From the NCBI RefSeq assembly GCF_013315695.1, contig NZ_CP054353.1: a DNA stretch of 64,000 bases, one strand, 5' to 3'. Within the stretch, counting starts at the first letter, position 1. The number at the start of each line of letters is the position of its first letter. Shown piece after piece: positions 1,571 to 35,423 of the stretch. The translations under genes and the position numbers were made by a program. The notes below the pieces were generated by a model. The model was given only the letters and a program-made list of their open reading frames with translations, searched no databases and was not told the DNA's origin. The DNA comes from Escherichia coli (GTDB lineage Bacteria; Pseudomonadota; Gammaproteobacteria; Enterobacterales; Enterobacteriaceae).

Positions 1571-2860
1571 ATGTTACTGGCGGGCGCTATCTTTGTCCTG
1601 ACCATCGTATTGGTTATCTGGCAGCCGAAAGGTTTAGGCATCGGCTGGAGTGCGACACTGGGCGCCGTACTGGCGTTAGTTACTGGCGTGGTCCATCCGG
1701 GCGATATTCCGGTGGTGTGGAATATCGTCTGGAACGCGACGGCGGCGTTTATAGCCGTCATTATCATCAGCTTGCTGCTGGATGAGTCCGGCTTTTTTGA
1801 ATGGGCGGCGCTGCACGTCTCACGCTGGGGCAATGGGCGCGGTCGCTTGCTGTTTACCTGGATTGTCCTGCTCGGTGCTGCCGTTGCAGCTCTGTTTGCC
1901 AATGATGGCGCGGCGCTTATTTTGACACCGATTGTCATCGCCATGCTGCTGGCTTTAGGGTTCAACAAAGGCACTACGCTGGCGTTTGTTATGGCGGCCG
2001 GATTCATTGCCGATACCGCCAGCCTGCCGCTTATTGTCTCTAACCTGGTGAATATCGTTTCGGCAGATTTCTTTAGCCTCGACTTTCGCGAATACGCCTC
2101 GGTGATGGTGCCGGTGGATATCGCTGCAATACTGGCTACCCTGGTGATGTTGCATCTCTATTTCCGCAAAGATATTCCGCAGAACTACGACATGGCGCTG
2201 CTAAAATCTCCCGCAGAAGCGGTTAAAGATCCTGCCACCTTCAAAACTGGCGGGGTTGTTTTACTGCTTCTGCTGGTGGGATTTTTCGTCCTGGAACCGC
2301 TCGGCATTCCGGTAAGCGCCATTGCGGCAGTGGGCGCGCTGATATTATTTGTCGTCGCTAAACGCGGTCATGCGATTAATACGGGTAAGGTGCTGCGCGG
2401 TGCGCCCTGGCAGATTGTCATCTTCTCGCTCGGCATGTATCTGGTGGTTTATGGCCTGCGCAATGCCGGATTAACGGAATATCTTTCTGGCGTACTCAAC
2501 GTGCTGGCGGATAACGGCCTGTGGGCGGCGACGCTCGGCACCGGATTCCTCACCGCCTTCCTCTCTTCTATTATGAACAATATGCCGACGGTACTGGTTG
2601 GCGCGTTGTCCATTGATGGCAGCACGGCATCTGGTGTCATCAAAGAAGCGATGGTTTATGCCAACGTAATTGGCTGCGATTTGGGGCCGAAAATTACACC
2701 GATTGGTAGCCTGGCAACGCTGCTCTGGCTGCACGTACTTTCGCAGAAGAATATGACTATCAGCTGGGGATATTACTTCCGTACAGGGATTATCATGACC
2801 CTGCCGGTGCTGTTTGTGACGCTCGCCGCGCTGGCGCTTCGTCTCTCTTTCACTTTGTAA
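1571..2860 (+). CDS. arsB: Arsenite/antimonite efflux pump ArsB
   Basis: ORF 1550..2860 is a polytopic membrane protein; start moved to ATG 1571 ([10 protein letters not shown]..., 429 aa), 4 nt after RBS aggagg at 1561-1566. Confidence 0.9.
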
Positions 2861-2872
2861 TGAGATACTGAT

Positions 2873-3298
2873 ATGAGCAACATTACTATTTATCACAACC
2901 CGGCCTGCGGCACGTCGCGTAATACGCTGGAGATGATTCGCAACAGCGGTACAGAACCGACCATTATCTATTATCTGGAAACTCCACCCACACGCGATGA
3001 ACTGATCAAGCTCATTGCCGATATGGGGATTTCCGTTCGTGCGCTGTTGCGTAAAAACGTTGAGCCGTATGAGGAACTGGGCCTTGCAGAAGATAAATTT
3101 ACTGACGATCGGTTAATCGACTTTATGCTGCAATATCCCATCCTGATTAACCGCCCGATTGTGGTGACACCGCTGGGAACTCGCCTGTGCCGCCCTTCAG
3201 AAGTGGTGCTGGAAATTCTGCCAGATGCGCAACAACGCGCGTTCACCAAGGAAGATGGCGAGAAAGTGGTTGATGAGGCGGGTAAACGCCTGAAATAG
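2873..3298 (+). CDS. arsC: Arsenate reductase ArsC (glutaredoxin-coupled)
   Basis: 141-aa ORF MSNITIYHNPACGTSRNTLEMI... with the catalytic Cys in the HNPACGTSR motif; last gene of arsRBC. Confidence 0.9.
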   Translation: MSNITIYHNPACGTSRNTLEMIRNSGTEPTIIYYLETPPTRDELIKLIADMGISVRALLRKNVEPYEELGLAEDKFTDDRLIDFMLQYPILINRPIVVTPLGTRLCRPSEVVLEILPDAQQRAFTKEDGEKVVDEAGKRLK

Positions 3299-4747: not shown

Positions 4748-5113
4748 ATAGATGCCAGCAGTAAACTATAAGGAGTATTGTGAGTGCCTTATCCTTCTGA
4801 GTAGAAAATCATAGATAGGATAATCCTTAAAAATAACAAATAACTTAACTAATGCTTTGAGAATGATGACGGATCCGTCAGTAAGTCATCAATCGACAAT
4901 CACCACGCAATCATGCTTCTCTGACATTTTATCGGAGAAGCAATGTCTCTTTGTCTCAGTATCATCCCCCTTTTAAAGGGTAGATTTCAGTCGCCAATAC
5001 AACACATTTTTAAATACACTTTAACCTGGTTCATTATTACACATCTAAAACATCACAAAAATATCACTTCACACACTATCGGAGAACATCATAACTTCGG
5101 TAATGACTCCAAC

Positions 5114-5617
5114 TTATTGATAGTGTTTTATGTTCAGATAATGCCCGATGACTTTGTCATGCAGCTCCACCGATTTTGAGAACGACAGCGACTTCCGTCC
5201 CAGCCGTGCCAGGTGCTGCCTCAGATTCAGGTTATGCCGCTCAATTCGCTGCGTATATCGCTTGCTGATTACGTGCAGCTTTCCCTTCAGGCGGGATTCA
5301 TACAGCGGCCAGCCATCCGTCATCCATATCACCACGTCAAAGGGTGACAGCAGGCTCATAAGACGCCCCAGCGTCGCCATAGTGCGTTCACCGAATACGT
5401 GCGCAACAACCGTCTTCCGGAGCCTGTCATACGCGTAAAACAGCCAGCGCTGGCGCGATTTAGCCCCGACATAGCCCCACTGTTCGTCCATTTCCGCGCA
5501 GACGATGACGTCACTGCCCGGCTGTATGCGCGAGGTTACCGACTGCGGCCTGAGTTTTTTAAGTGACGTAAAATCGTGTTGAGGCCAACGCCCATAATGC
5601 GGGCTGTTGCCCGGCAT
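5114..5617 (-). CDS. insB: IS1 InsB (expressed as InsAB' transposase by -1 frameshift)
   Basis: 167-aa [28 protein letters not shown]... overlapping the insA 3' end in the -1 frame. Confidence 0.9.
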
Positions 5618-5811
5618 CCAACGCCATTCATGGCCATATCAATGATTTTCTGGTGCGTACCGGGTTGAGAAGCGGTGTAAGTGAACTGCAGTTGCCATGT
5701 TTTACGGCAGTGAGAGCAGAGATAGCGCTGATGTCCGGCGGTGCTTTTGCCGTTACGCACCACCCCGTCAGTAGCTGAACAGGAGGGACAGCTGATAGAA
5801 ACAGAAGCCAC
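5536..5811 (-). CDS. insA: IS1 InsA (transposition inhibitor / N-terminal part of InsAB' transposase)
   Basis: 91-aa [40 protein letters not shown]... with zinc-finger Cys motifs; the A6C frameshift motif ttaaaaaactc is present at its 3' end. Confidence 0.95.
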
Positions 5812-6142
5812 TGGAGCACCTCAAAAACACCATCATACACTAAATCAGTAAGTTGGCAGCATCACCCATACAACGACATAATAAAATATCAGCAAGAATT
5901 CCAAAAAGAATGTTACAAGCAAGTTAAAGATTTTACAACACCCTCTCGATACAATAGAATTAAAAAATGGGCACAAATGTCTGAATATCAATTCGAAATA
6001 TTTCAACACGATACGTTTCATCCTAAAAAAATGTCATACGCACCTTATTTAAAGAGATCGCTACCTGATGAAAAAACTATAAATTATGGGGTAGAAATAG
6101 AAACACCAATTGGCAAAAGAATTCGCTGGTAATGACTCCAAC

Positions 6143-6646
6143 TTATTGATAGTGTTTTATGTTCAGATAATGCCCGATGACTTTGTCATGCAGCTCCACC
6201 GATTTTGAGAACGACAGCGACTTCCGTCCCAGCCGTGCCAGGTGCTGCCTCAGATTCAGGTTATGCCGCTCAATTCGCTGCGTATATCGCTTGCTGATTA
6301 CGTGCAGCTTTCCCTTCAGGCGGGATTCATACAGCGGCCAGCCATCCGTCATCCATATCACCACGTCAAAGGGTGACAGCAGGCTCATAAGACGCCCCAG
6401 CGTCGCCATAGTGCGTTCACCGAATACGTGCGCAACAACCGTCTTCCGGAGCCTGTCATACGCGTAAAACAGCCAGCGCTGGCGCGATTTAGCCCCGACA
6501 TAGCCCCACTGTTCGTCCATTTCCGCGCAGACGATGACGTCACTGCCCGGCTGTATGCGCGAGGTTACCGACTGCGGCCTGAGTTTTTTAAGTGACGTAA
6601 AATCGTGTTGAGGCCAACGCCCATAATGCGGGCTGTTGCCCGGCAT
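6143..6646 (-). CDS. insB: IS1 InsB (InsAB' by frameshift)
   Basis: Identical 167-aa InsB ORF. Confidence 0.9.
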
Positions 6647-6840
6647 CCAACGCCATTCATGGCCATATCAATGATTTTCTGGTGCGTACCGGGTTGAGAA
6701 GCGGTGTAAGTGAACTGCAGTTGCCATGTTTTACGGCAGTGAGAGCAGAGATAGCGCTGATGTCCGGCGGTGCTTTTGCCGTTACGCACCACCCCGTCAG
6801 TAGCTGAACAGGAGGGACAGCTGATAGAAACAGAAGCCAC
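6565..6840 (-). CDS. insA: IS1 InsA
   Basis: Identical 91-aa InsA ORF. Confidence 0.95.
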
Positions 6841-7181
6841 TGGAGCACCTCAAAAACACCATCATACACTAAATCAGTAAGTTGGCAGCATCACCGAATT
6901 CGCTTATCAAATCATTACCAGAATATAATCCCATAATATTGAACATTAGCGCTTTATAATCATTGAATAAAAATAGATTTTATGCACCTTTAAAAAAAGG
7001 CTATTTTATGGGGCGATGGATACTCATGTCACGCCCCAAAATTAACAGAATTAAACTAAACAGAAGGGATATAAACATCAGACAGGTTTACGTTACTATC
7101 AGGCATATCGCCTCAGAATCAGATGAAAACTATAAAGAAATATCTATTATGGTTTTAATATTTGTTGATAAGGATAGTAAC

Positions 7182-7748: not shown

Positions 7749-7900
7749 CACCACCGAAAGATGCAGATGCTTTCTCAGCATCTGCATCATGCATTACATC
7801 AAATTAATACACAGCCAGCTAATTATTATTATAAGCCCTGTCCTGTTAATTACCTTTGGCAAACTGATTATAAAGTTAATGTCCGCACCAGGAGTCGGTT

Positions 7901-8431
7901 ATGTTTCTTATAATTACCAGGGATACGATGTTCTTCACTGCGATGAAAAACATTCTGAGTAAAGGTAATGTCGTTCATATACAGAACGAAGAAGAGATCG
8001 ACGTAATGTTGCATCAGCATGCCTTCGTCATTATTGATACATTAATGAATAATGTATTTCATTCTAATTTGCTCACTCAAATTGAACGATTAAAACCTGT
8101 CCATGTGATTATTTTCTCCCCCTTTAATATTAAACGCTGCCTGGGGAAAGTACCGGTGACCTTTGTTCCGCGAACTATCACCATCATCGACTTTGTCGCA
8201 CTCATCAATGGCAGTTACTGCTCTGTGCCTGAAGCGGATGTGTCCCTTTCGCGCAAGCAGCATCAGGTTCTGAGCTGCATTGCGAATCAAATGACAACGG
8301 AAGATATTCTGGAGAAACTGAAAATATCGCTAAAAACGTTCTACTGCCATAAACACAATATCATGATGATCCTCAATCTTAAGCGGATCAATGAGTTGGT
8401 ACGCCATCAGCATATTGATTATCTGGTGTGA
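7901..8431 (+). CDS. dctR: LuxR-family regulator DctR (YhiF)
   Basis: 176-aa ORF with C-terminal LuxR-type HTH; position after slp as in the K-12 acid fitness island. Confidence 0.85.
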   Translation: MFLIITRDTMFFTAMKNILSKGNVVHIQNEEEIDVMLHQHAFVIIDTLMNNVFHSNLLTQIERLKPVHVIIFSPFNIKRCLGKVPVTFVPRTITIIDFVALINGSYCSVPEADVSLSRKQHQVLSCIANQMTTEDILEKLKISLKTFYCHKHNIMMILNLKRINELVRHQHIDYLV

Positions 8432-8491
8432 TCGATTGATTAATATAAAGAGGCCCAGCAATAAATAGCCAGACCTCCCGTTAATTATACG

Positions 8492-9520
8492 TTATGCAGT
8501 AACGCCTTCCGGTATCAGCGAAGCAATTTGCTTACGCCATTGCGCTTGCTCCTGTTCGCCTTCTGTACGTTGACCATAAAGTTGCGCTATCTGCGTACCA
8601 TCATGGGCAAACAATTCCAGACTGGTCACATAACCGTCACTAGCAGGTTTACGGGTTACCCAGGTTTCAGCAATGCTCTCTTCTAATAGATGAAGAGTAA
8701 ACGTCGGGTTAAAAATATTCAGCCAACCTTTCATTGGCACCACTTTTTCTACCACGCCAGTGAAAATCTGTACGCAGCCACGGTTGCCAACAAACACCAT
8801 GATTTCATTGCCATCCTGCTGTGCAGATTCAAGAATTTGCGCCAACGCACTGTTGGATACTTTGCAGGCCAAATCGTCTGCCACCAGATTGAACGCCTGT
8901 TGGCGCGTCAGGTTGTGGCGCTTGAGCAACGTAAAAAACTGATGAACGTCGGTCATCGCCCGCCACTCTTGCTCGACCACACTGGCATCGGCTCGCGTTT
9001 GAACAACTGGCGCATCAACGGCTTTTAACTCAAGCGGCGTATTCTCATCGGTGATAAACCGTGCCAGAAGCTCACTCCATGCCGCCATATCGGTATTGTC
9101 GGTGGCATAAACTTTTAGTAATGCATCGCCCTGATGATCAAAGAACTGAATACTCTGGCGTTCGCCACGAGCCGTGTTTTCTTTGATGTGGAAAACACTG
9201 GCCCATTGATTGAGAAACAGACGTAAATCCAGCGCGCGCGGATTGAGGATCAATCCGGCATGTCCGTTCAAATGCTGGTTTGTGAACGCACCAACTTGCT
9301 CATGGACTGCATATTCATTACGACAAATACATTTGGTTTCGCCAACACTTTCGAGCGCCGCCAGAATTTCACGAATATCGCCGCGCATCCGCCACGCGTC
9401 GTGCGTGACGCGCGCAAATGCCAGTTCTGCTTCGCTGATATTCATTAAACCTGCGATGTCACGCGCGTACTTTCCGGGATTTTGTTCTTTTAACTCAAGC
9501 CAGCGTGTGTAGTGGTTCAT
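8492..9520 (-). CDS. chuS: Heme-degrading / heme oxygenase protein ChuS (ShuS/HemS family)
   Basis: 342-aa ORF MNHYTRWLELKEQNPGKYARDIAGL...; immediately downstream of chuA on the same strand, as in chu/shu loci. Confidence 0.85.
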   Translation of the reverse strand: MNHYTRWLELKEQNPGKYARDIAGLMNISEAELAFARVTHDAWRMRGDIREILAALESVGETKCICRNEYAVHEQVGAFTNQHLNGHAGLILNPRALDLRLFLNQWASVFHIKENTARGERQSIQFFDHQGDALLKVYATDNTDMAAWSELLARFITDENTPLELKAVDAPVVQTRADASVVEQEWRAMTDVHQFFTLLKRHNLTRQQAFNLVADDLACKVSNSALAQILESAQQDGNEIMVFVGNRGCVQIFTGVVEKVVPMKGWLNIFNPTFTLHLLEESIAETWVTRKPASDGYVTSLELFAHDGTQIAQLYGQRTEGEQEQAQWRKQIASLIPEGVTA

Positions 9521-9568
9521 TGTCTCTCTTCCTTCCAGATAAATGCCCCGAAATATCGGGGCAGATGA

Positions 9569-11551
9569 TTACCATTGATAACTCACGAAAATTTTTCCGT
9601 TACGACCATCCTGTGGGATGCCTTGCGGCGACCAGTACTCTTTATCGAAGGCGTTGCCCAATACCAGAGTAGTGGTCATGCCTTTGAGCGCCTGTTGTCC
9701 TTGATAACTGACGTAAAAATCATTCACACCATAGCCAGGTTGTTTGCTGTAACTGCTGCTGATATGTGTTGAGCGATCGGCAAACGTACCGACCCAACCA
9801 ACAGAGAAGCCACTGTGAGCGATCGGAATATTCAGGGTACTGGTAACGGTATCCGGGTTAATGCTGGAGATATATTCCCCAGTATCGGTGTCTTTGCCGC
9901 GGGTACGGTTATAGGCCACATCAAGGCTAAACAGATCAGTGGTATATTTCGTCATTACATCCCAGCCCCAGATTTTGGCGTTCGGGACGTTATACGACAT
10001 AGTTGTCGCCGCCGCGAAATCGACGGTCGTGGAGATGTAATCCTTCGCTTTGGTATCAAAGTAGCTGGCTTTAAATTCCAGAGCATCATTGGACAACATC
10101 AGGTCATCAAAACGCAGCCCAAAACCGTACTCCTGAGTTTCGTTAGTTTCCGGACGTAAGTTCGGGTTTGGCACCCAATAGTTGGTATAGAAGCGACCAA
10201 TCGAGAAGTGCTTAGAATCGTTATACATTTCGCCCATCGTCGGGGCGCGGAATGCCTGGGCATATGAGCCAAATAACATCAGCCAGTTGGTCGGGTTGAT
10301 AGTCATCCCCGCACGAGATGACCATTTGTCAGCATCAACATCTTTGTAGCCGTCGCTGCTACCGCGATAACTGTCATAGCGGGTTCCGCCAAGCAGGGTA
10401 ATCGGCAGATCGCGTAAGGTGATCTCATCCTGTAGCCAACCAGAGCTAAAATCGATTTTTGCTTGCGGGAAGCCCGTGGTCGCGCCACCCGGATGTTGTT
10501 CCTGACGATAATACTCACCGCCATATGTCAGTAAGTGAGAAGCGAAACTGTCGGCAAATAGAGTGGAACGGTTCTCCAGCCTGGCTCCTTTTGTTATCTG
10601 TTCACGATACTCGCCGGAACTCCCCGTGTTTTGCGCATTAATACGGACTTCCGACCAGTAAATTTTTGCATCTGCATTTAACCAGTCGTTGCCCTGCGGG
10701 GCGAGTTTATAAGAAAGCTGCGCATCGCGTTGAATTGTTGAACGATCAACCATCGGGTTGCTGCTATCAGAAGCCTCAACAGTCTGCGGATTTTTTGGTT
10801 CACGCGCGTCGTTGTTGTAGTAACGCACTAAACCGCTCAGAGACTGGGCTGAATCAATTTGCCAGGTCCCTTTCGCCAGCATGTTATTAATGGACTCGTC
10901 ATTCGGCGCGGTTTCACCATTGCTCTGGCGTAAATCACCCCGATCGCGACTGGACCAGGCCACAATACCATCCAGATTTTCAGTTCGCCCAAACGCGCTC
11001 GCGCCTAATCCCAGGCTATGGTCCCCCGTGCCGCCAGTACCAAAGACACGAAAACCACTACTTTGTCCTTCCTGCAATAAATCTTTTGCATCGACCGTAT
11101 CGTAGGAGATCACCCCACCCAGCGCGCCACTGCCATACAGTAATGCTGAAGGTCCGCGAACAATCTCAACACGCTTGATCAGCGCCGGATCAAGAAAAGT
11201 ACCATTCAGGTGTCCGGTATCCGTTCCCTGGCGAACACCATCGACAAGAACCAGCACGCCGCGATGATCATAGCCACGCATATTTACATCCTGACCGTTG
11301 GTTCGTCCGGTACCATCAAGAGTAATTCCAGGAACATGACGCAGCAAATCAGTGGCTGAAGTAGCAGTTTGATTTTCAGGAGCGGAAGTGTCGATAACGC
11401 TGACCATCATAGGCGCTTCGAAGGAACTACGTGCATTCCCCGTTGCCGTAACGGTCATGGTTTCAGTAGCAAAAGCAAATGTTGGCAAGGTGGCAGAAAC
11501 AGCCAAAGCCAACAAACTCAAACGCAACGAGGTAAATTGCGGACGTGACAT
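9569..11551 (-). CDS. chuA: TonB-dependent outer-membrane heme/hemoglobin receptor ChuA (ShuA)
   Basis: 660-aa ORF with signal peptide, N-terminal plug region and C-terminal terminal-F beta-barrel residue (…VSYQW); Fur box upstream. Confidence 0.9.
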   Translation of the reverse strand: MSRPQFTSLRLSLLALAVSATLPTFAFATETMTVTATGNARSSFEAPMMVSVIDTSAPENQTATSATDLLRHVPGITLDGTGRTNGQDVNMRGYDHRGVLVLVDGVRQGTDTGHLNGTFLDPALIKRVEIVRGPSALLYGSGALGGVISYDTVDAKDLLQEGQSSGFRVFGTGGTGDHSLGLGASAFGRTENLDGIVAWSSRDRGDLRQSNGETAPNDESINNMLAKGTWQIDSAQSLSGLVRYYNNDAREPKNPQTVEASDSSNPMVDRSTIQRDAQLSYKLAPQGNDWLNADAKIYWSEVRINAQNTGSSGEYREQITKGARLENRSTLFADSFASHLLTYGGEYYRQEQHPGGATTGFPQAKIDFSSGWLQDEITLRDLPITLLGGTRYDSYRGSSDGYKDVDADKWSSRAGMTINPTNWLMLFGSYAQAFRAPTMGEMYNDSKHFSIGRFYTNYWVPNPNLRPETNETQEYGFGLRFDDLMLSNDALEFKASYFDTKAKDYISTTVDFAAATTMSYNVPNAKIWGWDVMTKYTTDLFSLDVAYNRTRGKDTDTGEYISSINPDTVTSTLNIPIAHSGFSVGWVGTFADRSTHISSSYSKQPGYGVNDFYVSYQGQQALKGMTTTLVLGNAFDKEYWSPQGIPQDGRNGKIFVSYQW

Positions 11552-11585
11552 AGCGATTCTCCATGAGGAAAATAAAAAATGCTGG
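11552..11585 (-). promoter_or_regulatory. chuA translation-initiation region with U-rich tract next to the SD (candidate FourU RNA thermometer)
   Basis: Minus-strand mRNA reads ...auuuuuuauuuuccucauggagaaucgcuAUG; a U-run adjacent to the GGAG Shine-Dalgarno; a FourU thermometer has been reported for shuA (from memory). Confidence 0.4.
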
Positions 11586-11841
11586 CTGCCTGGGTTAATA
11601 CCGGGGTGGCTGGCGAAAAATAAATTTATTTACAATTCAAATGATTAGATATCACCACGGGAAGCTATTAGCGTATATATCCCGTAAAATTGCCGAATAT
11701 TTCTGATAATTCAGCAAAAGCACGCCCTCTTTGTCAGGCAAAGTAGTACGCCACGTCTGAAGTGAAGAGTGCTGTGCGTTTTCCCTTACAAAAGATATGA
11801 TTTTGTTATCCATGATGTCATATTTTGTTAAACTCAAACGT

Positions 11842-11860
11842 GATAATGAGAATTATTATC
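11842..11860. promoter_or_regulatory. Fur box (iron-responsive operator), about 290 bp upstream of chuA
   Basis: gataatgagaattattatc matches the Fur consensus GATAATGATAATCATTATC at 17/19 positions. Confidence 0.75.
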
Positions 11861-12192
11861 GATCAATTTTTTATGATCAAGCTTTTTTTAACCGCCATTA
11901 ACACAATAAACAGGGGGTTATGAAATCTATCCAGCATCCAGAAAACCATCCTGTGTTTATGGCTATCCCCCCACAACCTCATCACAAAACGTTGTCGTTA
12001 ACAGTGATAATTTTCTCTTCTCTTTGCTCTGCAAGCCGCGATATCTCCGGGTTCTCAGCTTTTTCCCGCGCTGAAATTTAATCGGTAACAAGAACATTAG
12101 CTGACGAAGCATCTTGATAAAAATCAAAAATAAATACGCTTGTAACGCCTTGCGTATTGAATCGACGGTTGTATTTCATATATAACTCAAAT

Positions 12193-12211
12193 GATAATCA
12201 TGATCATTCTC
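12193..12211. promoter_or_regulatory. Fur box upstream of chuT
   Basis: gataatcatgatcattctc matches the Fur consensus at 16/19 positions; 24 bp before the ATG at 12235. Confidence 0.7.
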
Positions 12212-12234
12212 AATTTGATAAGAGTTCTCACATT

Positions 12235-13149
12235 ATGCCAAGGATCATCACCAGGCCGTTTCTTTTTTCCCCACTGACGTTATGTATTTCAGCCGTGGCC
12301 TCTGCCGCGAAGACCATGGTAAAACGAAAAAAATTGTTTACGGCATTACTGGCTCTTAGCTGGACTTTTAGCGTAACGGCTGCCGAACGTATCGTGGTCG
12401 CAGGAGGATCGCTGACGGAGCTAATCTACGCGATGGGCGCTGGCAAACGCGTGGTTGGTGTCGATGAAACGACATCTTATCCACCAGAAACCGCCAAACT
12501 GCCGCATATTGGTTACTGGAAACAACTCAGCAGCGAAGGCATTTTGTCACTTCGCCCGGATAGCGTAATTACCTGGCAGGATGCCGGGCCACAAATTGTG
12601 CTCGACCAACTACGAGCGCAGAAAGTCAACGTCGTCACCCTGCCGCGTGTGCCTGCCACCCTTGAGCAGATGTACGCCAACATTCGCCAACTGGCAAAAA
12701 CGCTACAGGTTCCTGAACAAGGCGAGGCGCTGGTGACACAGATCAACCAACGCCTGGAGCGAGTACAGCAAAACGTGGCGGCCAAAAAAGCCCCGGTTAA
12801 AGCCATGTTTATTCTCTCCGCAGGCGGAAGTGCGCCACAGGTTGCCGGTAAAGGCAGCGTCGCGGACGCCATTCTTTCGCTTGCCGGAGCAGAAAACGTC
12901 GCTACCCACCAGCAGTACAAAAGCTACAGCGCGGAATCGCTGATTGCGGCTAACCCTGAAGTGATTGTCGTCACCTCACAAATGGTCGATGGCGATATTA
13001 ATCGGCTACGTTCTATTGCCGGAATTACCCACACCGCCGCCTGGAAGAACCAGCGCATTATCACCGTTGATCAAAACCTGATTCTGGGAATGGGTCCGCG
13101 TATTGCTGATGTCGTTGAGTCTTTACACCAGCAGCTTTGGCCGCAATAA
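12235..13149 (+). CDS. chuT: Periplasmic heme-binding protein ChuT (ABC transporter substrate-binding); start uncertain
   Basis: ORF 12157..13149. The ATG at 12235 lies just after the Fur box; an internal ATG at 12316 (MVKRKKLFTALLALSWTFSVTAA-ERIVVAGG) gives a canonical signal peptide and may be the true start. Confidence 0.8.
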   Translation: MPRIITRPFLFSPLTLCISAVASAAKTMVKRKKLFTALLALSWTFSVTAAERIVVAGGSLTELIYAMGAGKRVVGVDETTSYPPETAKLPHIGYWKQLSSEGILSLRPDSVITWQDAGPQIVLDQLRAQKVNVVTLPRVPATLEQMYANIRQLAKTLQVPEQGEALVTQINQRLERVQQNVAAKKAPVKAMFILSAGGSAPQVAGKGSVADAILSLAGAENVATHQQYKSYSAESLIAANPEVIVVTSQMVDGDINRLRSIAGITHTAAWKNQRIITVDQNLILGMGPRIADVVESLHQQLWPQ

Positions 13150-13168
13150 ATGGATTTAAATCAGACGA

Positions 13169-14506
13169 ATGAACACAAATAACACCCTGGATCTCACGCC
13201 ACATTTTGCTTTAGACGGTGATCAGCCATTTAAAGACAGGCGCGCCATGATGCCGTTTCGTGGGGCCATTCCAGTTGCCAAAGAGCAACTGGCACAGACC
13301 TGGCAAGAGATGCTCAATCAAACGGTATCACCACGTAAGCGACTGGTTTATCTACACATTCCTTTTTGTGCAACACACTGCACGTTTTGTGGTTTTTATC
13401 AGAACCGTTTTAATGAAGATGCGTGTGCTCATTATACCGACGCCCTGATTCGTGAAATAGAACGGGAAGCAGACAGCGTATTGCATCAGTCTGCCCCCAT
13501 CCACGCGGTCTATTTCGGTGGCGGTACGCCTTCCGCGCTTTCGGCACACGATTTGGCCAGAATCATCACCACATTACGAGAAAAGCTGCCACTGGCCCCT
13601 GATTGTGAAATCACTATCGAAGGCCGGGTACTGAATTTTGACGCTGAGCGAATCGATGCTTGCCTTGATGCAGGAGCAAACCGCTTCTCAATTGGTATTC
13701 AGTCGTTTAACAGCAAAATCCGCAAGAAAATGGCCCGCACCTCGGATGGCCCAACCGCTATTGCGTTTATGGAAAGCTTGGTCAAACGCGACCGTGCCGC
13801 GGTGGTCTGTGACCTGCTGTTTGGTCTGCCGGGTCAGGATGCGCAAACCTGGGGAGAAGATCTGGCTATTGCCCGCGATATCGGTCTCGACGGCGTCGAT
13901 CTCTATGCGCTCAATGTCCTGCCCAATACACCGCTGGGCAAAGCCGTGGAAAATGGGCGCACTACCGTGCCCTCTCCGGCAGAACGTCGCGATCTTTACC
14001 TGCAAGGGTGTGATTTTATGGACGATGCCGGTTGGCGCTGCATCAGTAACAGCCACTGGGGCCGTACCACACGCGAACGCAATCTCTATAACCTGCTGAT
14101 TAAACAAGGTGCCGATTGTCTGGCCTTTGGTTCTGGAGCCGGTGGTTCGATTAATGGTTACTCCTGGATGAACGAACGCAATCTTCAGACCTGGCATGAA
14201 TCCGTCGCGGCAGGCAAAAAACCGCTGATGATGATCATGCGTAACGCCGAACGTAACGCGCAGTGGCGTCATACCTTGCAGTCGGGCATTGAAACGGCGC
14301 GTGTACCGCTGGACGAACTTACGCCACATGCCGAAAAACTCGCGCCGTTACTGGCCCAGTGGCACCAAAAAGGCTTAAGCCGCGATGCGTCAACGTGTCT
14401 GCGGTTGACCAATGAAGGTCGTTTCTGGGCAAGCAACATTTTGCAGTCTCTTAATGAACTGATTCAGGTACTTAATGCGCCAGCAATTGCGCTTGAAAAA
14501 CCATAA
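13169..14506 (+). CDS. chuW: Radical SAM heme-degrading enzyme ChuW (HemN-like, anaerobilin synthase)
   Basis: 445-aa ORF with radical SAM CxxxCxxC motif (CATHCTFC). Confidence 0.85.
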   Translation: MNTNNTLDLTPHFALDGDQPFKDRRAMMPFRGAIPVAKEQLAQTWQEMLNQTVSPRKRLVYLHIPFCATHCTFCGFYQNRFNEDACAHYTDALIREIEREADSVLHQSAPIHAVYFGGGTPSALSAHDLARIITTLREKLPLAPDCEITIEGRVLNFDAERIDACLDAGANRFSIGIQSFNSKIRKKMARTSDGPTAIAFMESLVKRDRAAVVCDLLFGLPGQDAQTWGEDLAIARDIGLDGVDLYALNVLPNTPLGKAVENGRTTVPSPAERRDLYLQGCDFMDDAGWRCISNSHWGRTTRERNLYNLLIKQGADCLAFGSGAGGSINGYSWMNERNLQTWHESVAAGKKPLMMIMRNAERNAQWRHTLQSGIETARVPLDELTPHAEKLAPLLAQWHQKGLSRDASTCLRLTNEGRFWASNILQSLNELIQVLNAPAIALEKP

Positions 14507-14518
14507 CAGGAGTGATTT

Positions 14519-15013
14519 ATGAGCCATGTCTCGTTACAGGAATTTTTGAAAACGGAGCCGGACGGTACGCTGGAGGCGATCGCCGAACAATACAACACCA
14601 CGCTGCTGGAGGTAGTGAAAAATCTGCCCTCTCCGACTGTTGTGTCAGGTGATAAATTCGATACTGTCTGGGATACCGTCTGCGAATGGGGCAACGTCAC
14701 CACGTTAGTACATACTGCCGATGTCATCCTCGAATTTAGCGGCGAACTGCCTTCGGGTTTCCATCGCCACGGCTATTTCAACCTACGCGGAAAGCACGGC
14801 ATGTCCGGGCATATCAAAGCAGAAAACTGCACACATATTGCCTTGATCGAACGTAAATTTATGGGCATGGACACCGCATCCATTCTCTTTTTCAACAAAG
14901 AAGGCAGCGCCATGCTGAAAATCTTCCTCGGCAGGGATGACCATCGTCAGCTCCTGAGCGAACAGGTCAGCGCCTTCCATGCTCTGGCAGCATCGTTAAA
15001 GGAACACGCCTGA
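14519..15013 (+). CDS. chuX: Heme utilization protein ChuX
   Basis: 164-aa ORF in conserved position between chuW and chuY. Confidence 0.8.
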   Translation: MSHVSLQEFLKTEPDGTLEAIAEQYNTTLLEVVKNLPSPTVVSGDKFDTVWDTVCEWGNVTTLVHTADVILEFSGELPSGFHRHGYFNLRGKHGMSGHIKAENCTHIALIERKFMGMDTASILFFNKEGSAMLKIFLGRDDHRQLLSEQVSAFHALAASLKEHA

Positions 15014-15636
15014 TGACACCGTGGCTACTCTTTGGCGCAGGCGGAAAAGGTGTGGGTGCCAGAACGCTTGAACTGGCGCTGGCGGAACAACGTCCGGTCG
15101 TTGCTGTCATTCGTCATGCCGATGCCGCCACGAAACTGGCGCAACAAGGCGTACAGGTTTTTACAGGCGACGCCTGTGATGCCAGCGTAGTCGCGGCTGC
15201 TTGCCGCGCAGCTGGCCCGGATGCGCTTATCATCTCAACAATGGGCGGAGCTCAGGATTATCTGGCGCACAGAACAGTGATTGACGAGGCCGAGAAGGCT
15301 GGCATCAGTCGCATGATTCTGGTGACCTCTTTGGGATGCGGCGATAGCTGGCCGTTTTTATCAGAGCGGGCAAAGGCTGCGTTTGGTCAGGCGGTACGGG
15401 AAAAAACGCTGGCGGAAAGCTGGTTGCAAACCAGCCAGCTTGATTATGCCATTCTCCGCCCTGGCGGTCTGCTTGATGGTGCGGCAACGGGCAAAGCACA
15501 ACGGATACAAAATCAGGAGTGTCATGGTTTTGTTAACCGTGCTGATGTCGCCGCACATATCCATGAACTGGCAAATGCGCCAGCACTTAACCAGCAGGTC
15601 TACAGTCTGATTGAACCGGACCTGAAACCGGCGTGA
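15013..15636 (+). CDS. chuY: NAD(P)-dependent reductase ChuY (anaerobilin reductase)
   Basis: 207-aa ORF with N-terminal Rossmann-type GAGGKGVGA motif; start overlaps the chuX stop. Confidence 0.8.
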   Translation: MTPWLLFGAGGKGVGARTLELALAEQRPVVAVIRHADAATKLAQQGVQVFTGDACDASVVAAACRAAGPDALIISTMGGAQDYLAHRTVIDEAEKAGISRMILVTSLGCGDSWPFLSERAKAAFGQAVREKTLAESWLQTSQLDYAILRPGGLLDGAATGKAQRIQNQECHGFVNRADVAAHIHELANAPALNQQVYSLIEPDLKPA

Positions 15637-15684
15637 TCCCCCGGCGCGGTATGTCCGCGCCGTAATGTCGTAACGGAGTTTTGC

Positions 15685-16677
15685 GTGCTCAAGGATTCAC
15701 TCTCTTCCGCCAGGGTCTTTATGGGGCTATCACTATTATTGCTCGCTCTGGTGCTGTTTGGTGCCAGTCAGGGAGCGTTAAAGATCAGTTTTGATGCCCT
15801 TTTTGATGAGGAATACCGCGATATCTGGCTCAATATTCGTCTACCACGGGTTTTGCTGGCGGTGCTGGTAGGTGCAGCGTTGGCAACCGCCGGGGTAATT
15901 ATGCAAGGGCTTTTTCGCAACCCAATGGCTGACCCTGGATTACTTGGCGTCAGTAGCGGTTCTGCATTAATGGTTGGCGTTGCTATTGTGCTGCCCTTCT
16001 CCTTCCCAGTGGTGCTGGTGCTCTATGAGCAAATGGTGTTTGCCATTGCCGGAAGTTTAGTGGTCTGCACCATCATTTTTCTCATCACGCAGCGCCATCG
16101 CGATGGCAGCATGATGCAATTATTACTCGCCGGTATCGCCATCAATGCCCTGTGCGGCGCAGCGATCGGCATCCTGAGCTATATCGGCGATGAGCAGCAG
16201 CTACGACAACTCACATTGTGGATGATGGGCAATCTTGGACAGGCGCAATGGCCGACGTTATTGGTTGCCAGTTCATTCATCCTACCGGCCATTATCGCAA
16301 CAACTTGTCTCGCCGGAACGCTGAATTTACTGCAGCTCGGTGATGAAGAAGCCCACTACCTCGGCGTGAACGTTAAGCGTAAACGCCAGCAATTACTGTT
16401 AGTGAGCTCACTGCTCGTTGGTGCCGCCGTATCGGTAAGCGGCATTATCGGCTTTATTGGCCTGGTGATCCCGCATCTGATTCGTATGACTACCGGGGCA
16501 AATCACCGCTGGCTAATCCCTTGCTCCGCCCTCGCCGGAGCCTGTTTATTGCTGATGGCAGACACGCTTGCCCGCACACTGGTACAGCCAGCAGAAATGC
16601 CCGTGGGATTATTAACCAGCCTGCTTGGTGGCCCTTATTTTATGTGGTTGATTCTGCGCAACCGGAGGATCACATGA
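15685..16677 (+). CDS. chuU: Heme ABC transporter permease ChuU
   Basis: 330-aa polytopic membrane protein of the FecCD/BtuC family. Confidence 0.85.
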
Positions 16678-17444
16678 TCAGCGCCCAGAATCTGGTTTAT
16701 AGCCTTCAGGGGCGGCGTCTGACTGATAATGTCTCGCTGACTTTTCCCGGTGGGGAAATTGTTGCCATCCTCGGCCCTAATGGTGCGGGAAAATCTACGC
16801 TGCTTCGCCAGCTAACCGGCTATCTTCAACCTGATAGCGGCGAATGTCGGTTGTTTAATAAGCCATTAAATGAATGGTCGATTACTGAACTGGCGAAACA
16901 CCGGGCCGTGATGCGTCAAAATAGCCACATGGCGTTTCCATTCAGCGTACAAGAAGTTATCCAGATGGGGCGGCATCCGCATCGTACTGGTAATCAGGAT
17001 AATGAAACAGCACAAATAATGGCGTTATGTGACTGTCAGGCGTTAGCAAACCGCGACTACCGGCAATTATCCGGTGGTGAACAACAGCGCGTGCAATTAG
17101 CGCGCCTGCTGGTGCAACTCTGGGAACCTACTCCCTCACCGAAATGGTTATTTCTTGATGAACCAACTTCGGCGCTGGATATTCACCATCAGCAGCACTT
17201 GTTTCGTTTATTACGCCAGTTAGTTCACGAACGGCAGTTCAATGTTTGTTGCGTATTGCACGATCTAAATCTTGCCGCGCGTTATGCAGACCGTGTTGTA
17301 TTAATGCAAAAAGGAAAGGTTATCGCAAATGGTAAGCCGCAGGACGTATTGACACAGCAGGCGCTGACAATGCTCTACGGCGCGGATATTACCGTACTTA
17401 AAGATCCTGCCAACCATTCACCACTGATCGTCCTCGATCATTAA
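16674..17444 (+). CDS. chuV: Heme ABC transporter ATP-binding protein ChuV (HmuV)
   Basis: ORF 16521..17444; start set to ATG 16674 ([11 protein letters not shown]...) after RBS ggagga, overlapping the chuU stop by 4 bp (ATGA); Walker [10 protein letters not shown] and signature LSGGEQQR. Confidence 0.85.
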
Positions 17445-17450
17445 AACCAA

Positions 17451-17475
17451 CAGGAGTACCGCACTGGTACTCCTG
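17451..17475. terminator. Hairpin caggagtac-cgcactg-gtactcctg between convergent chuV and yhiD
   Basis: 9-bp perfect stem read directly; lies between the two convergent stop codons. Confidence 0.55.
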
Positions 17476-17495
17476 CGAATAAATAACTATACAGA

Positions 17496-18143
17496 TTAGC
17501 TAATTGAAACACCTTTCACCCCTGCCATACCTTTTAATAATCGCAACAGATCTTCTATCGACGTCGTGGCATGAAGCTGGATATCAATGGCGACCACTTC
17601 ATGATCTTCATTTTCCTGCAACGAAACTAAATCCGTTTTTATTTTTTGCTGCTTAAACCAGTCGAGCATTGATACCGTATTACCGTTCACTAATGTCAGC
17701 TGTAAATGGTAATTTTTGTTCATCAGGCGGAAGGTTAATTGATGGAAGACTTCCAGCACCAGCAAGGTCATCACTGAACCATAAATACCCAGTTCGTACA
17801 TACCGCTGCCAATAACCATACCAATGGCGGCGGTCACCCAGATATCCGCTGCCGTCGTCAGACCTACAATATTTTGGTTACGAACGAGAATGTTACCTGC
17901 ACCGATAAACCCGACGCCCGTCACAACCTGAGCAGCAATACGGCTGGGGTCCAGTCCGACGTGACCTAAAGACAGCACGTCAGCAAAACCATATTTCGAA
18001 ACAATCATAAACAGGGCGCTTCCCATGCCAATTAATACATGTGTGCGTAACCCTGCTCCTTTGCCGCGCATTTGCCTTTCCATGCCAATAGCGCCACAGG
18101 CAATTACCGCAAGTATAAGTCGTATAATAAATTCTGCTGTCAT
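17496..18143 (-). CDS. yhiD: MgtC-family inner membrane protein YhiD
   Basis: ORF 17496..18155; start set to MTAEFIIRLILA... (215 aa). Confidence 0.85.
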   Translation of the reverse strand: MTAEFIIRLILAVIACGAIGMERQMRGKGAGLRTHVLIGMGSALFMIVSKYGFADVLSLGHVGLDPSRIAAQVVTGVGFIGAGNILVRNQNIVGLTTAADIWVTAAIGMVIGSGMYELGIYGSVMTLLVLEVFHQLTFRLMNKNYHLQLTLVNGNTVSMLDWFKQQKIKTDLVSLQENEDHEVVAIDIQLHATTSIEDLLRLLKGMAGVKGVSIS

Positions 18144-18157
18144 ATAAAAATGCAAAA

Positions 18158-18195
18158 AGGAGCAGCAAGATGGCTCAACTTGCTACTCCTTTTTA
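18158..18195 (-). terminator. Rho-independent terminator downstream of hdeB
   Basis: Stem aggagcagcaag / cttgctactcct (one mismatch), flanked by an A-run (plus strand) giving a U-run on the minus-strand transcript. Confidence 0.5.
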
Positions 18196-18206
18196 CTTGT
18201 ACCTTA

Positions 18207-18533
18207 TTAATTCGGCAAGTCATTAGATGCTTGATTTTTGAAGGTATACAAATTTTTCTGCGGGTTTTTCTTGCAGTATTCGATCACTTTAGGAATTTGA
18301 GTGAGATCGGTTTCATTTAAAGTAACGGTATCGCCACCTTTATATACTGTTTCTTCATGCAGCATCCACCACGCAACTGGTGTCATTGCTTTTGGATTCA
18401 GATCAATAAATTCCTGGCAGGTCATATCTTTAGCGGATTCATTGGCTGCCAGCGCAGATTGTGCGTTCACCAGTGACAAAGCCGCTACAGCGCCCATAAA
18501 AATAAACGCTTTACGGAGAGATGCAATGTTCAT
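18207..18533 (-). CDS. hdeB: Periplasmic acid-stress chaperone HdeB
   Basis: ORF 18207..18545; start set to MNIASLRKAFIFMGAVAALSLVNAQSALA (108 aa). Confidence 0.9.
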   Translation of the reverse strand: MNIASLRKAFIFMGAVAALSLVNAQSALAANESAKDMTCQEFIDLNPKAMTPVAWWMLHEETVYKGGDTVTLNETDLTQIPKVIEYCKKNPQKNLYTFKNQASNDLPN

Positions 18534-21134: not shown

Positions 21135-21472
21135 TAAGGACATAAGCAACTGAAATTGATGGCTGGCATGACGAGGGATGCAGATGCTGATTTCAATACC
21201 CCCGGTGATTATTGAAGGAGAGACGAAAACGACTTTATTCCCCTGGTATGTGTATCCACCAGTAGAACCCTTCGTTGCCCGAATGCTGGCAGAAACTGTT
21301 GGCAGAACGGCAACATTTTTTTTGTCGTTGACCTCACCATGTCGATCATTGTGCTTGCATCCCATCTTACTGGCTGACAACCCCACTATGCCGCTGGTCT
21401 GTAAATCCCTCATATCTCTCCTCGCGCGCAATTTAAAGAACCGTTATTTCTCAAGAATTTTCAGGGACTAAA

Positions 21473-26859: not shown

Positions 26860-27105
26860 GACTATCCCTTATATTTCATTACTGCGATTATTTCAATTTC
26901 AGTATACTAATGAAATGATGCCAGACTGTTTCTTAGCGCAAAAACTGCCAGATTTGGTAGGACCAAAATTTATCCACAAAGTAGTTTTGCATAACAGTTA
27001 ATTGACAATAAGTAAATGCAACACGAATATATTTTCGCACAGCGTATAGCTTATGTTTATAAAAAAATGGCTGATCTTATTTCCAGTAAAAGTTATATTT
27101 AACTT

Positions 27106-27210
27106 ACTGAGAGCACAAAGTTTCCCGTGCCAACAGGGAGTGTTATAACGGTTTATTAGTCTGGAGACGGCAGACTATCCTCTTCCCGGTCCCCTATGCC
27201 GGGTTTTTTT
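27106..27210 (+). ncRNA. gadY: GadY small RNA (antisense to the gadX 3' UTR)
   Basis: actgagagcacaaagtttcccgtgccaacagggagtg... ending in hairpin cccggtcccctatgccggg + T8; located between gadW and gadX on the strand opposite gadX. Confidence 0.75.
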
Positions 27211-27227
27211 TATGTCTGAGTAAAACT

Positions 27228-34127: not shown

Positions 34128-34645
34128 AACTGAATCTCCACCTGAATACGTTAAAAAGACTTAAGTAGTGGAAGGGTATTACCCGCGAGAAAAAATAAGA
34201 ATTCGCCATTTGGCGGTGGCCATTCTACAGAGATGACGCGTAGAAAATAGTTACCGATATAAATAGTTACAGCTAAACGCCTGAAATTACATGTCGAGTG
34301 CACTATTTAAAACAATTTTGAGGATTTCCTTATATTGATGGTTAGTACGCATGCAATTAAAAATGAAACTCCGCGACCACAAGCAAAAATAACAAATGGC
34401 AATGAGACAAAAATAAGCACAAATAGCCAACACGTCCTCTGTTCACTTTAAAGGGAATCGCTGAAAAAAACGCTCTGTTTAGGGAAATTCACCTTTCTCA
34501 TAAAGCTATTCCGCCCTTTTCCTGCTGAGAAATCGCCACATTCGTCATGACAACATTGTGAAACCCGGCATTAGATGTTAGAAAAAACAAGGTGATGCTG
34601 CCAACTTACTGATTTAGTGTATGATGGTGTTTTTGAGGTGCTCCA

Positions 34646-34921
34646 GTGGCTTCTGTTTCTATCAGCTGTCCCTCCTGTTCAGCTACTGACGGGGTGGTGC
34701 GTAACGGCAAAAGCACCGCCGGACATCAGCGCTATCTCTGCTCTCACTGCCGTAAAACATGGCAACTGCAGTTCACTTACACCGCTTCTCAACCCGGTAC
34801 GCACCAGAAAATCATTGATATGGCCATGAATGGCGTTGGATGCCGGGCAACAGCCCGCATTATGGGCGTTGGCCTCAACACGATTTTACGTCACTTAAAA
34901 AACTCAGGCCGCAGTCGGTAA
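34646..34921 (+). CDS. insA: IS1 InsA
   Basis: Identical 91-aa InsA ORF. Confidence 0.95.
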
Positions 34922-35343
34922 CCTCGCGCATACAGCCGGGCAGTGACGTCATCGTCTGCGCGGAAATGGACGAACAGTGGGGCTATGTCGGGGCTAAATC
35001 GCGCCAGCGCTGGCTGTTTTACGCGTATGACAGGCTCCGGAAGACGGTTGTTGCGCACGTATTCGGTGAACGCACTATGGCGACGCTGGGGCGTCTTATG
35101 AGCCTGCTGTCACCCTTTGACGTGGTGATATGGATGACGGATGGCTGGCCGCTGTATGAATCCCGCCTGAAGGGAAAGCTGCACGTAATCAGCAAGCGAT
35201 ATACGCAGCGAATTGAGCGGCATAACCTGAATCTGAGGCAGCACCTGGCACGGCTGGGACGGAAGTCGCTGTCGTTCTCAAAATCGGTGGAGCTGCATGA
35301 CAAAGTCATCGGGCATTATCTGAACATAAAACACTATCAATAA
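34840..35343 (+). CDS. insB: IS1 InsB (InsAB' by frameshift)
   Basis: Identical 167-aa InsB ORF. Confidence 0.9.
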
Positions 35344-35423
35344 GTTGGAGTCATTACCAAAAAACAATAAACAATGCGATATGCGCGCTACTGTTTCGCT
35401 GTGAACAACAATCGGTCAAAGAA

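Follow-up and report, generated by a model that had tools for sequence, protein, structure and literature searches.

The chuA gene is a marker in Escherichia coli phylotyping and belongs to chu, the heme uptake and utilisation locus that is called shu in Shigella and with which pathogenic E. coli and Shigella take up and degrade heme of the host to obtain iron. Here we analyse a chu locus found in a stretch of 64,000 nucleotides of E. coli contig NZ_CP054353.1 (assembly GCF_013315695.1), referred to as the window throughout and always meaning that whole stretch. The closest described systems, first described by Wyckoff et al. in 1998 as cited in PMC5799925, are the shu locus of Shigella dysenteriae and the chu loci of E. 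coli O157:H7 and CFT073. They have the same eight genes as the locus studied here, in the same order and orientation, at the same site between dctR and yhiD, and with the same Fur boxes and RNA thermometers; in the chuA–chuT intergenic region, the window carries the allele of CFT073, that is, of uropathogenic E. coli (UPEC), and not that of O157:H7. The locus is already known and shows no difference of kind from the described chu and shu loci, and a first-pass annotation, made from the DNA letters and their open reading frames (ORFs), was right to present it as a known feature and not as a novelty (PMC5799925, PMC10114669).

Other described systems resemble it in part. The hmuRSTUV or hemRSTUV loci of Yersinia, Citrobacter, Enterobacter, Kluyvera and Cedecea encode a close receptor and a close HemS-type protein and have the same architecture of ATP-binding cassette (ABC) importer, but they are colinear on one strand and have distant T, U and V components, and W, X and Y genes are absent within 10 kb of them. 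Operons of Klebsiella sp. BIGb0407, Cedecea neteri and Providencia repeat the T-W-X-Y(-U-V) order and the spacing of the right arm of chu, but begin with a different TonB-dependent receptor of 710–716 amino acids (aa) and are without chuS. In Vibrio cholerae, the three Fur-controlled genes hutWXZ serve anaerobic heme degradation with HutX and with HutW, a radical S-adenosylmethionine (SAM) protein that is 39% identical to ChuW; there, however, hutZ, whose product has another fold and activity, replaces chuY, and a ChuS homologue is missing (PMC10114669).

The eight-gene chu locus between dctR and yhiD

We identified genes by combining the ORF listing with curated family models and comparison with solved structures. 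The interval between dctR (yhiF; 7901–8431, plus strand; named dctR in E. coli AF3 and in K-12) and yhiD (17496–18143, minus strand; NF007431, 398 bits), which are its left and right flanks in the acid fitness island, is filled by eight intact genes: chuS and chuA on the minus strand, and chuT, chuW, chuX, chuY, chuU and chuV on the plus strand. All eight products have full-length matches to curated family models or to solved Chu, Shu or Hmu structures, and for ChuS, ChuX, ChuY and ShuT, which have entries of their own in the PDB, the structure matches are full length with E values of 1e-106 to 1e-229. Such scores lie far above chance level. The chromosomal location between dctR and yhiD is likewise the one that characterises a Chu/Shu locus. 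We read the feature as the chu locus at its standard site within the acid fitness island, with a probability of roughly 0.93; comparison with AF3 and K-12 confirms that it splits the slp–gadA acid fitness island between dctR and yhiD, as the first-pass annotation had it. At the nucleotide level, positions 7800–18300 of the window are 100% identical to AF3, a bloodstream isolate in which the eight chu genes are annotated as intact, and over 12 kb the identity is 96.9% to O157:H7 and 98.6% to CFT073 (96.9–98.8% for both chu loci together).

On the minus strand, chuA (9569–11551) encodes a TonB-dependent outer-membrane heme and hemoglobin receptor of 660 aa, which scores 588 bits against TIGR01785 (cut-off 317). 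The mature protein is fully covered by the ChuA and ShuA structures PDB 9dhe and 3fhh (1430–1447 bits), and both His86 and His420 are present in it. Directly downstream, after a gap of 48 bp, lies chuS (8492–9520, minus strand; named chuS in AF3), which is followed by a terminator of its own. Its product, a cytoplasmic heme-binding and heme-degrading protein of 342 aa with the two-domain organisation of the HemS type, matches PDB 4cdp and 1u9t over residues 1–342 (761 bits) and has His193.

On the plus strand, chuT (12235–13149; annotated chuT in AF3) encodes a periplasmic heme-binding protein of 304 aa that is matched over the whole mature protein by ShuT (PDB 2r7a, 541 bits). The radical SAM methyltransferase ChuW (445 aa; gene at 13169–14506) covers positions 2–418 of the 419 in profile TIGR04107 (570 bits, cut-off 400) and has the CxxxCxxC radical SAM motif at residues 67–74. 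Next come chuX (14519–15013), for a cytoplasmic heme carrier of 164 aa (TIGR04108, 210 bits, cut-off 110; PDB 2ovi, which is ChuX, 356 bits over residues 1–164), and chuY (15013–15636), for an NADPH-dependent anaerobilin reductase of 207 aa (PDB 5guy and 5ffq, both ChuY, 449 bits over residues 1–207), which is annotated as anaerobilin reductase in AF3 as well. The last two genes, chuU (15685–16677, GTG start; annotated ShuU/ChuU in AF3) and chuV (16674–17444), have reading frames that overlap by 4 nt and encode the permease (330 aa) and the ATPase (256 aa) of a heme ABC transporter. They match the two components of the Yersinia HmuU/HmuV structure PDB 4g1u (HmuU, chain A, 432 bits; HmuV, chain C, 322 bits), and ChuV, with a score of 397 bits against NF010068 (cut-off 261), has the Walker A sequence GPNGAGKS and the LSGG signature.

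ChuT, ChuU and ChuV together have the composition of a binding-protein-dependent ABC importer, and family models, structures and the radical SAM motif agree in assigning ChuW, ChuX and ChuY to anaerobic heme degradation. These family-model and structure matches bear out the earlier claim that the Chu/Shu system is complete, with all eight genes and including chuW, chuX and chuY. The listing also has ORFs of 80 aa or more that run antisense to the chu genes or are nested in them (for example, 8690–9028 on the plus strand and 13688–14329 on the minus strand); as each of them lies wholly within a confirmed gene, they were set aside as mechanical.

A different identity for these ORFs would be that of general iron or cobalamin ABC-transport genes and HemN-like genes that are not true Chu/Shu orthologues. 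BtuF, BtuC, BtuD, FhuB and HemN-family models do give secondary matches of lower score; the cobalamin, siderophore and HemN models, however, all stay under their own cut-offs, whereas the heme-specific models all exceed their curated ones, and the products are nearly identical to the solved ChuS, ChuX, ChuY, ShuA/ChuA and ShuT. This homology search, which the first-pass annotation had named as the test that could refute it, returned heme-specific models and near-identical structures for the ORFs, and we give the non-orthologue explanation next to no weight.

Gene content, integrity, positions and regulatory sequences are observed here, and activities and regulation are taken over from published orthologues that are identical or nearly so. 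By analogy with these characterised orthologues, the locus would make heme and hemoglobin available as iron sources and would produce anaerobilin in a ChuW-dependent manner (PMC10114669, PMC9002310). The chuA–chuS unit would provide the TonB-dependent outer-membrane heme receptor and the cytoplasmic ChuS, which would bind and degrade heme; ChuT would bind heme in the periplasm, and ChuUV would act as the inner-membrane ABC importer. Both ChuW, which is described to open the heme ring anaerobically, and ChuY have been characterised in their function (PMC10114669), and in this strain ChuW would open the porphyrin ring without oxygen to yield iron and anaerobilin.

Regulatory elements of the two transcription units

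A consensus Fur-box search of the whole 64-kb window returned only two sites, against 0.02 expected by chance. The first (11842–11860; GATAATGAGAATTATTATC, two mismatches to the consensus) lies in the chuA promoter and is invariant across Escherichia species, and a −35/−10-like promoter for chuA is found at 11880–11852 on the minus strand. As the published chuA leader, or 5′ untranslated region (UTR), is 291 nt long (PMC9002310), chuA transcription would start at about 11842, directly at this Fur box, and the leader, of the UPEC-type allele, would extend over roughly 291 nt (11552–11842, minus strand). Over the chuA ribosome-binding site (RBS) and start codon, Rfam model RF02597 places the shuA/chuA FourU RNA thermometer (11549–11580, minus strand) with 60.1 bits, against a gathering score of 58, and an E value of 6.8e-07; the thermometer function of this element has been described (PMC3660397, PMC9002310).

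The second Fur box (12193–12211, plus strand, three mismatches) occupies positions +1 to +19 of chuT, whose 5′ UTR of 42 nt (12193–12234, plus strand), with an shuT-type RNA thermometer, was placed by its position match to S. dysenteriae shuT. In that species, shuT is transcribed from a start 42 nt ahead of its ATG, with a Fur site of three mismatches at +1 to +19 (PMC5458455), and the chuT box coincides exactly with this published site. As sequence elements, then, putative divergent Fur-regulated promoters and leader thermometers stand at their published positions, and the genes would form two divergent Fur-repressed units, chuA–chuS and chuTWXYUV. Low iron would relieve Fur repression at both promoters, and a temperature of 37 °C would melt the thermometers of the two leaders, chuA and chuT, and permit translation.

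Whereas the chu coding genes are 96–98% identical to those of O157:H7, the chuA–chuT intergenic region (11552–12234) is 88.8% identical to that strain and 99.9% identical to CFT073, which has the UPEC allele. For the UPEC leader of chuA, higher expression and an escape from repression by ChiX have been reported (PMC9002310). Across Escherichia species, the blocks with the Fur boxes and promoters (11840–11918 and 12095–12234) are conserved, and positions 11920–12090 are highly variable. A 53-codon ORF beside the chuA Fur box (11920–12081, plus strand), preceded by a strong RBS, AGGGGG, was rejected as a gene: E. albertii and two further Escherichia lineages, E69 and SCPM-O-B-8794, lack its ATG, and the spacer around it is the least conserved, indel-rich part of the chuA–chuT spacer.

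Downstream of chuS lies an intrinsic terminator hairpin (8449–8478, minus strand), recognised by its folding energy, with a stem of 11 bp and UUUAUAUU after it. Only on the minus strand does this hairpin form well (−18.7 kcal/mol, z −3.3, compared to −11.5 kcal/mol, z −1.1, on the plus strand). Between chuV and yhiD, a strong hairpin that also has an 11-bp stem (17451–17475) folds on the plus strand with −17.9 kcal/mol (z −5.7) and on the minus strand with −19.4 kcal/mol (z −3.7). Because its U-rich tail (TGGTTTTAAT after the stem) is present on the minus strand only, we read it as the yhiD terminator and at best as a weak one for chuV.

The frames could be intact and the system still be silent or non-functional through a regulatory or trans-acting defect, for example in tonB or exbBD, which lie outside the window. 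The strain background, with deletions linked to the insertion sequence IS1 at a yhiS-like gene and in the bcsR–bcsE region, lends this some colour, and the sequence alone would be compatible with such a defect, although nothing within the window points to one; against it stand the presence and conservation of both promoters, the Fur boxes, the thermometer regions and the terminators, as well as the 100% identity of the DNA to the locus of a bloodstream isolate. We judge a silent system to be highly improbable.

Borders, residence at the dctR site and origin of the two arms

We defined the borders by aligning the window with K-12 MG1655 at dctR–yhiD. Homology to K-12 ends right after the TGA of dctR (8431) and restarts at 17491, where 5 nt remain to the stop codon of yhiD. 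The chu-specific segment is 8432–17490, that is, 9,059 bp in place of a K-12 spacer of 36 bp (ATTTCAGGCTTACGGTGAGTCTGGCTACGCTGCCAC). This comparison, which the first-pass annotation had proposed, gives exact borders and refines its picture: the interval it had drawn, 8432–17495, is the whole dctR–yhiD intergenic region and is correct within 5 nt, and its claim of sharp borders holds on the left, at the base after the dctR stop. On the right it had named the chuV/yhiD terminator, but this hairpin lies within chu-specific DNA and marks no border; the border itself falls 15 nt past it, and the yhiD stop follows 5 nt further on.

Among 5,426 complete E. coli genomes, the site is occupied in 2,234 and has the K-12-like empty junction in 3,179, so that it is essentially biallelic in the species. 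No integrase or transposase gene is found in 8432–17490, where the non-nested ORFs of the listing are the eight chu genes; the Rfam scan of the window returned no transfer RNA (tRNA), and the ends of the segment showed neither direct or inverted terminal repeats nor any other sign of mobility. Of the features that strictly define a mobile or pathogenicity island, the integrase or transposase, the adjacent tRNA or att site and the flanking direct repeats are missing, and the deviating base composition is present, with a G+C content of 0.49–0.57 in the chu genes compared to 0.40–0.46 in slp, dctR, yhiD, hdeB and hdeA.

We scanned one genome per bacterial species for ChuA and examined 80 of the 96 ChuA-bearing loci; among these 80, the full eight-gene arrangement at the dctR site occurs in Escherichia only. 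The left junction at dctR is identical in E. albertii and in lineages E69 and SCPM-O-B-8794 (roughly 90–91% identical to the window), and in all three chu has diverged about as much as its flanks (88–93% identity). In E. albertii, which has chu but no yhiD, with chuV running directly into the hairpin on the hdeB side, nucleotide identity is 88–92% for the chu genes and 84–92% for slp, dctR, hdeB and hdeA. The corresponding ranges for chu and flanking genes are 96–98% and 98–99% in O157:H7, and 97–99.5% and 98–99.7% in CFT073.

Because the per-gene identity of chu tracks that of slp, dctR, hdeB and hdeA in every comparison, we infer a long vertical residence and not a recent insertion. Such a residence was proposed earlier (PMC5799925). 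The locus would have stood at the dctR site since before the split between E. coli and E. albertii, and the empty site of K-12-type strains is probably a secondary loss. To call chu 'inserted', as the first-pass annotation did, is right in that the locus splits the gene order of K-12, but the wording is K-12-centred, given the same junction in E. albertii and in the divergent lineages.

On another view, the locus entered a previously contiguous, K-12-like acid fitness island by a horizontal insertion that was recent and specific to the lineage. This would agree with a G+C content above that of the flanks, with the patchy distribution (41% of E. coli genomes) and with the sharp K-12 borders, between which the occupied allele is without the 36 bp of K-12, but it has to contend with the lack of an integrase, transposase, tRNA or terminal repeat and with the same dctR junction and flank-like divergence (88–93%) in E. 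albertii, E69 and SCPM-O-B-8794. Moreover, the chu genes differ by 1–4% among O157:H7, CFT073 and the window, as the flanks do, and in PMC5799925 heme genes and acid fitness island are assigned to one and the same ancestral branch. We thus regard a recent insertion as unlikely and favour long residence with loss in K-12-type strains.

The interval between dctR and hdeB exists in at least five states: chu with yhiD (the window), yhiD only (K-12 and E. fergusonii, L086), chu only (E. albertii, L047), neither of the two (an Escherichia-like metagenomic contig, L089, in which dctR lies directly beside hdeB), and chuSA with a repeat like the enterobacterial repetitive intergenic consensus (ERIC) and yhiD (Escherichia sp. 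MOD1-EC7003, L003). With so many states, chu and yhiD vary independently. In MOD1-EC7003 (L003 reverse complement, 12107–12222 and 12538–12623), the ERIC-like repeat stands at the deletion junction in place of chuTWXYUV, a second ERIC-like repeat is inserted in the chuA leader, and the right junction coincides to the base with that of the K-12 allele (window 17490/17491).

The left and right arms of the locus differ in their nearest relatives. Colinear hmuRSTUV-type operons headed by a relative of ChuA occur in Citrobacter, Enterobacter, Kluyvera, Buttiauxella, Cedecea and other genera. In most of these loci the receptor is 67–88% identical to ChuA and the HemS-type protein 66–86% identical to ChuS (57–62% for both in the most distant genera, Limnobaculum, Pragia and Leminorella), and in all of them T, U and V are 31–37%, 56–66% and 48–55% identical to ChuT, ChuU and ChuV; none has a W, X or Y gene in the 10 kb around it. 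A search with ChuY returned orthologues of 67–87% identity, the named ones being from Klebsiella, Raoultella, Kluyvera, Serratia fonticola, Cedecea and Providencia. The three contexts that we examined have the one-strand order receptor-T-W-X-Y in Klebsiella sp. and Cedecea neteri and receptor-T-W-X-Y-U-V in Providencia. Identities to ChuT, ChuW, ChuX and ChuY are 81, 88, 86 and 81% for the Klebsiella sp. operon, and those to ChuT, W, X, Y, U and V are 66, 77, 80, 72, 77 and 64% for the Providencia operon. The Providencia receptor is 29% identical to ChuA, over the plug domain only; like the receptor of Klebsiella sp., it stays under the curated cut-off for heme receptors. In Cedecea neteri, the two operon types occur together, at separate sites. 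Given these amino-acid identities and gene orders, which differ in their nearest relatives between the arms, the chu locus looks like an hmuRS-type arm fused head to head with a TWXYUV-type arm.

The empty allele of K-12 may hold a trace of how chu was lost. In reverse complement, its 36-bp spacer (positions 3215–3250 of the K-12 locus, L002) resembles the chuS terminator region (window 8449–8485), with 15 of 17 aligned columns matching at window 8466–8481 and 19 of 23 matching against the SCPM-O-B-8794 allele. When the 60-bp left end only is considered, 6–18 of 2,000–3,000 shuffles reach the same level; when the whole island is taken, the inverted match, which was noticed post hoc, is not significant (112 of 200 shuffles are as good), and the spacer has no similarity to the right end of the island in either orientation. 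The match could be a rearrangement scar of chu loss, or chance. As a joint account, a chimera of hmuRS and TWXYUV arms in early Escherichia followed by loss in K-12-type strains, with the 36-bp spacer as an inverted remnant of the chuS terminator, is tentative and rather doubtful as a whole; its chimera part is well supported and its scar part rests on one post-hoc match.

Several points weigh against our reading of chu as an intact, long-resident locus of two joined arms. Intact frames and regulatory motifs are no proof that the locus is expressed or that heme is used in this strain. The chimera is drawn from amino-acid identities and gene order and not from gene trees, with 80 of the 96 ChuA-bearing loci examined, and the direction of loss from four non-coli Escherichia loci and identity values, and not from a formal ancestral-state reconstruction. 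The higher G+C content of the chu genes relative to their flanks shows that they were of foreign origin at an earlier time. Finally, E. fergusonii, which is without chu and was reached by a DctR homologue search, is too divergent at the site to give polarity, as its dctR–yhiD spacer of 73 bp is not significantly similar to either the spacer of K-12 or the terminator of chuS.

IS1 copies in the window and significance of the locus

Four identical 768-bp copies of IS1 lie in the window (5099–5866, 6128–6895, 34591–35358 and 59050–59817), none of them in chu. The first-pass annotation had taken the intactness of the locus despite the IS1 load as an argument for selective maintenance, which does not hold. 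Under random insertion, a 9.06-kb target is spared by all four copies with a probability of (1 − 9059/64000)^4 = 0.54, and the copies are not independent, as two of the four are shared with AF3, to which window positions 6896–64000 are 99.99% identical. The intactness of chu is therefore uninformative on selection.

The IS1 copies at 5099–5866 and 6128–6895 are in direct orientation, 261 bp apart (window 5099–6904). That at 6128–6895 is new compared to AF3: it has entered a yhiS-like gene at its 3′ end and has a target duplication of 9 bp (GAATTCGCT). Roughly 1.16 kb of this gene is deleted beside the copy at 5099–5866, itself without a target duplication. This exact arrangement of the IS1 pair and the yhiS-like gene is found in no complete E. 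coli genome of the collection. The copy at 59050–59817, also without a target duplication, replaces the divergent bcsR–bcsE promoter region; bcsR and bcsE are both annotated as truncated in AF3, and the cellulose-synthesis operons are probably disabled. The bcsA gene (55605–58223, minus strand) is intact in the window and has a nonsense codon at residue 738 in AF3 (a difference at window 56012). Elsewhere in the window, the Rfam matches above gathering scores at 696–1012, 21252–21323, 27103–27216 and 63253–63802 are to known small RNAs and comprise two AgrB, ES205 upstream of gadE, GadY and two RdlD, the two RdlD antitoxin copies belonging to the ldr/rdl repeat array.

The chu locus is a virulence-associated iron source, and its pathway is among the better-studied ones for anaerobic heme degradation. 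Its biology is already established, and the finding of an intact chu in this strain is a strain-level annotation only. What this analysis adds are base-exact borders relative to K-12, the occupancy of the site in 5,426 genomes, evidence of old vertical residence, and two arms with different nearest relatives. If the K-12 allele did arise by loss with an inverted scar, this would settle the puzzle, raised in PMC5799925, of a clean deletion versus repeated gain.

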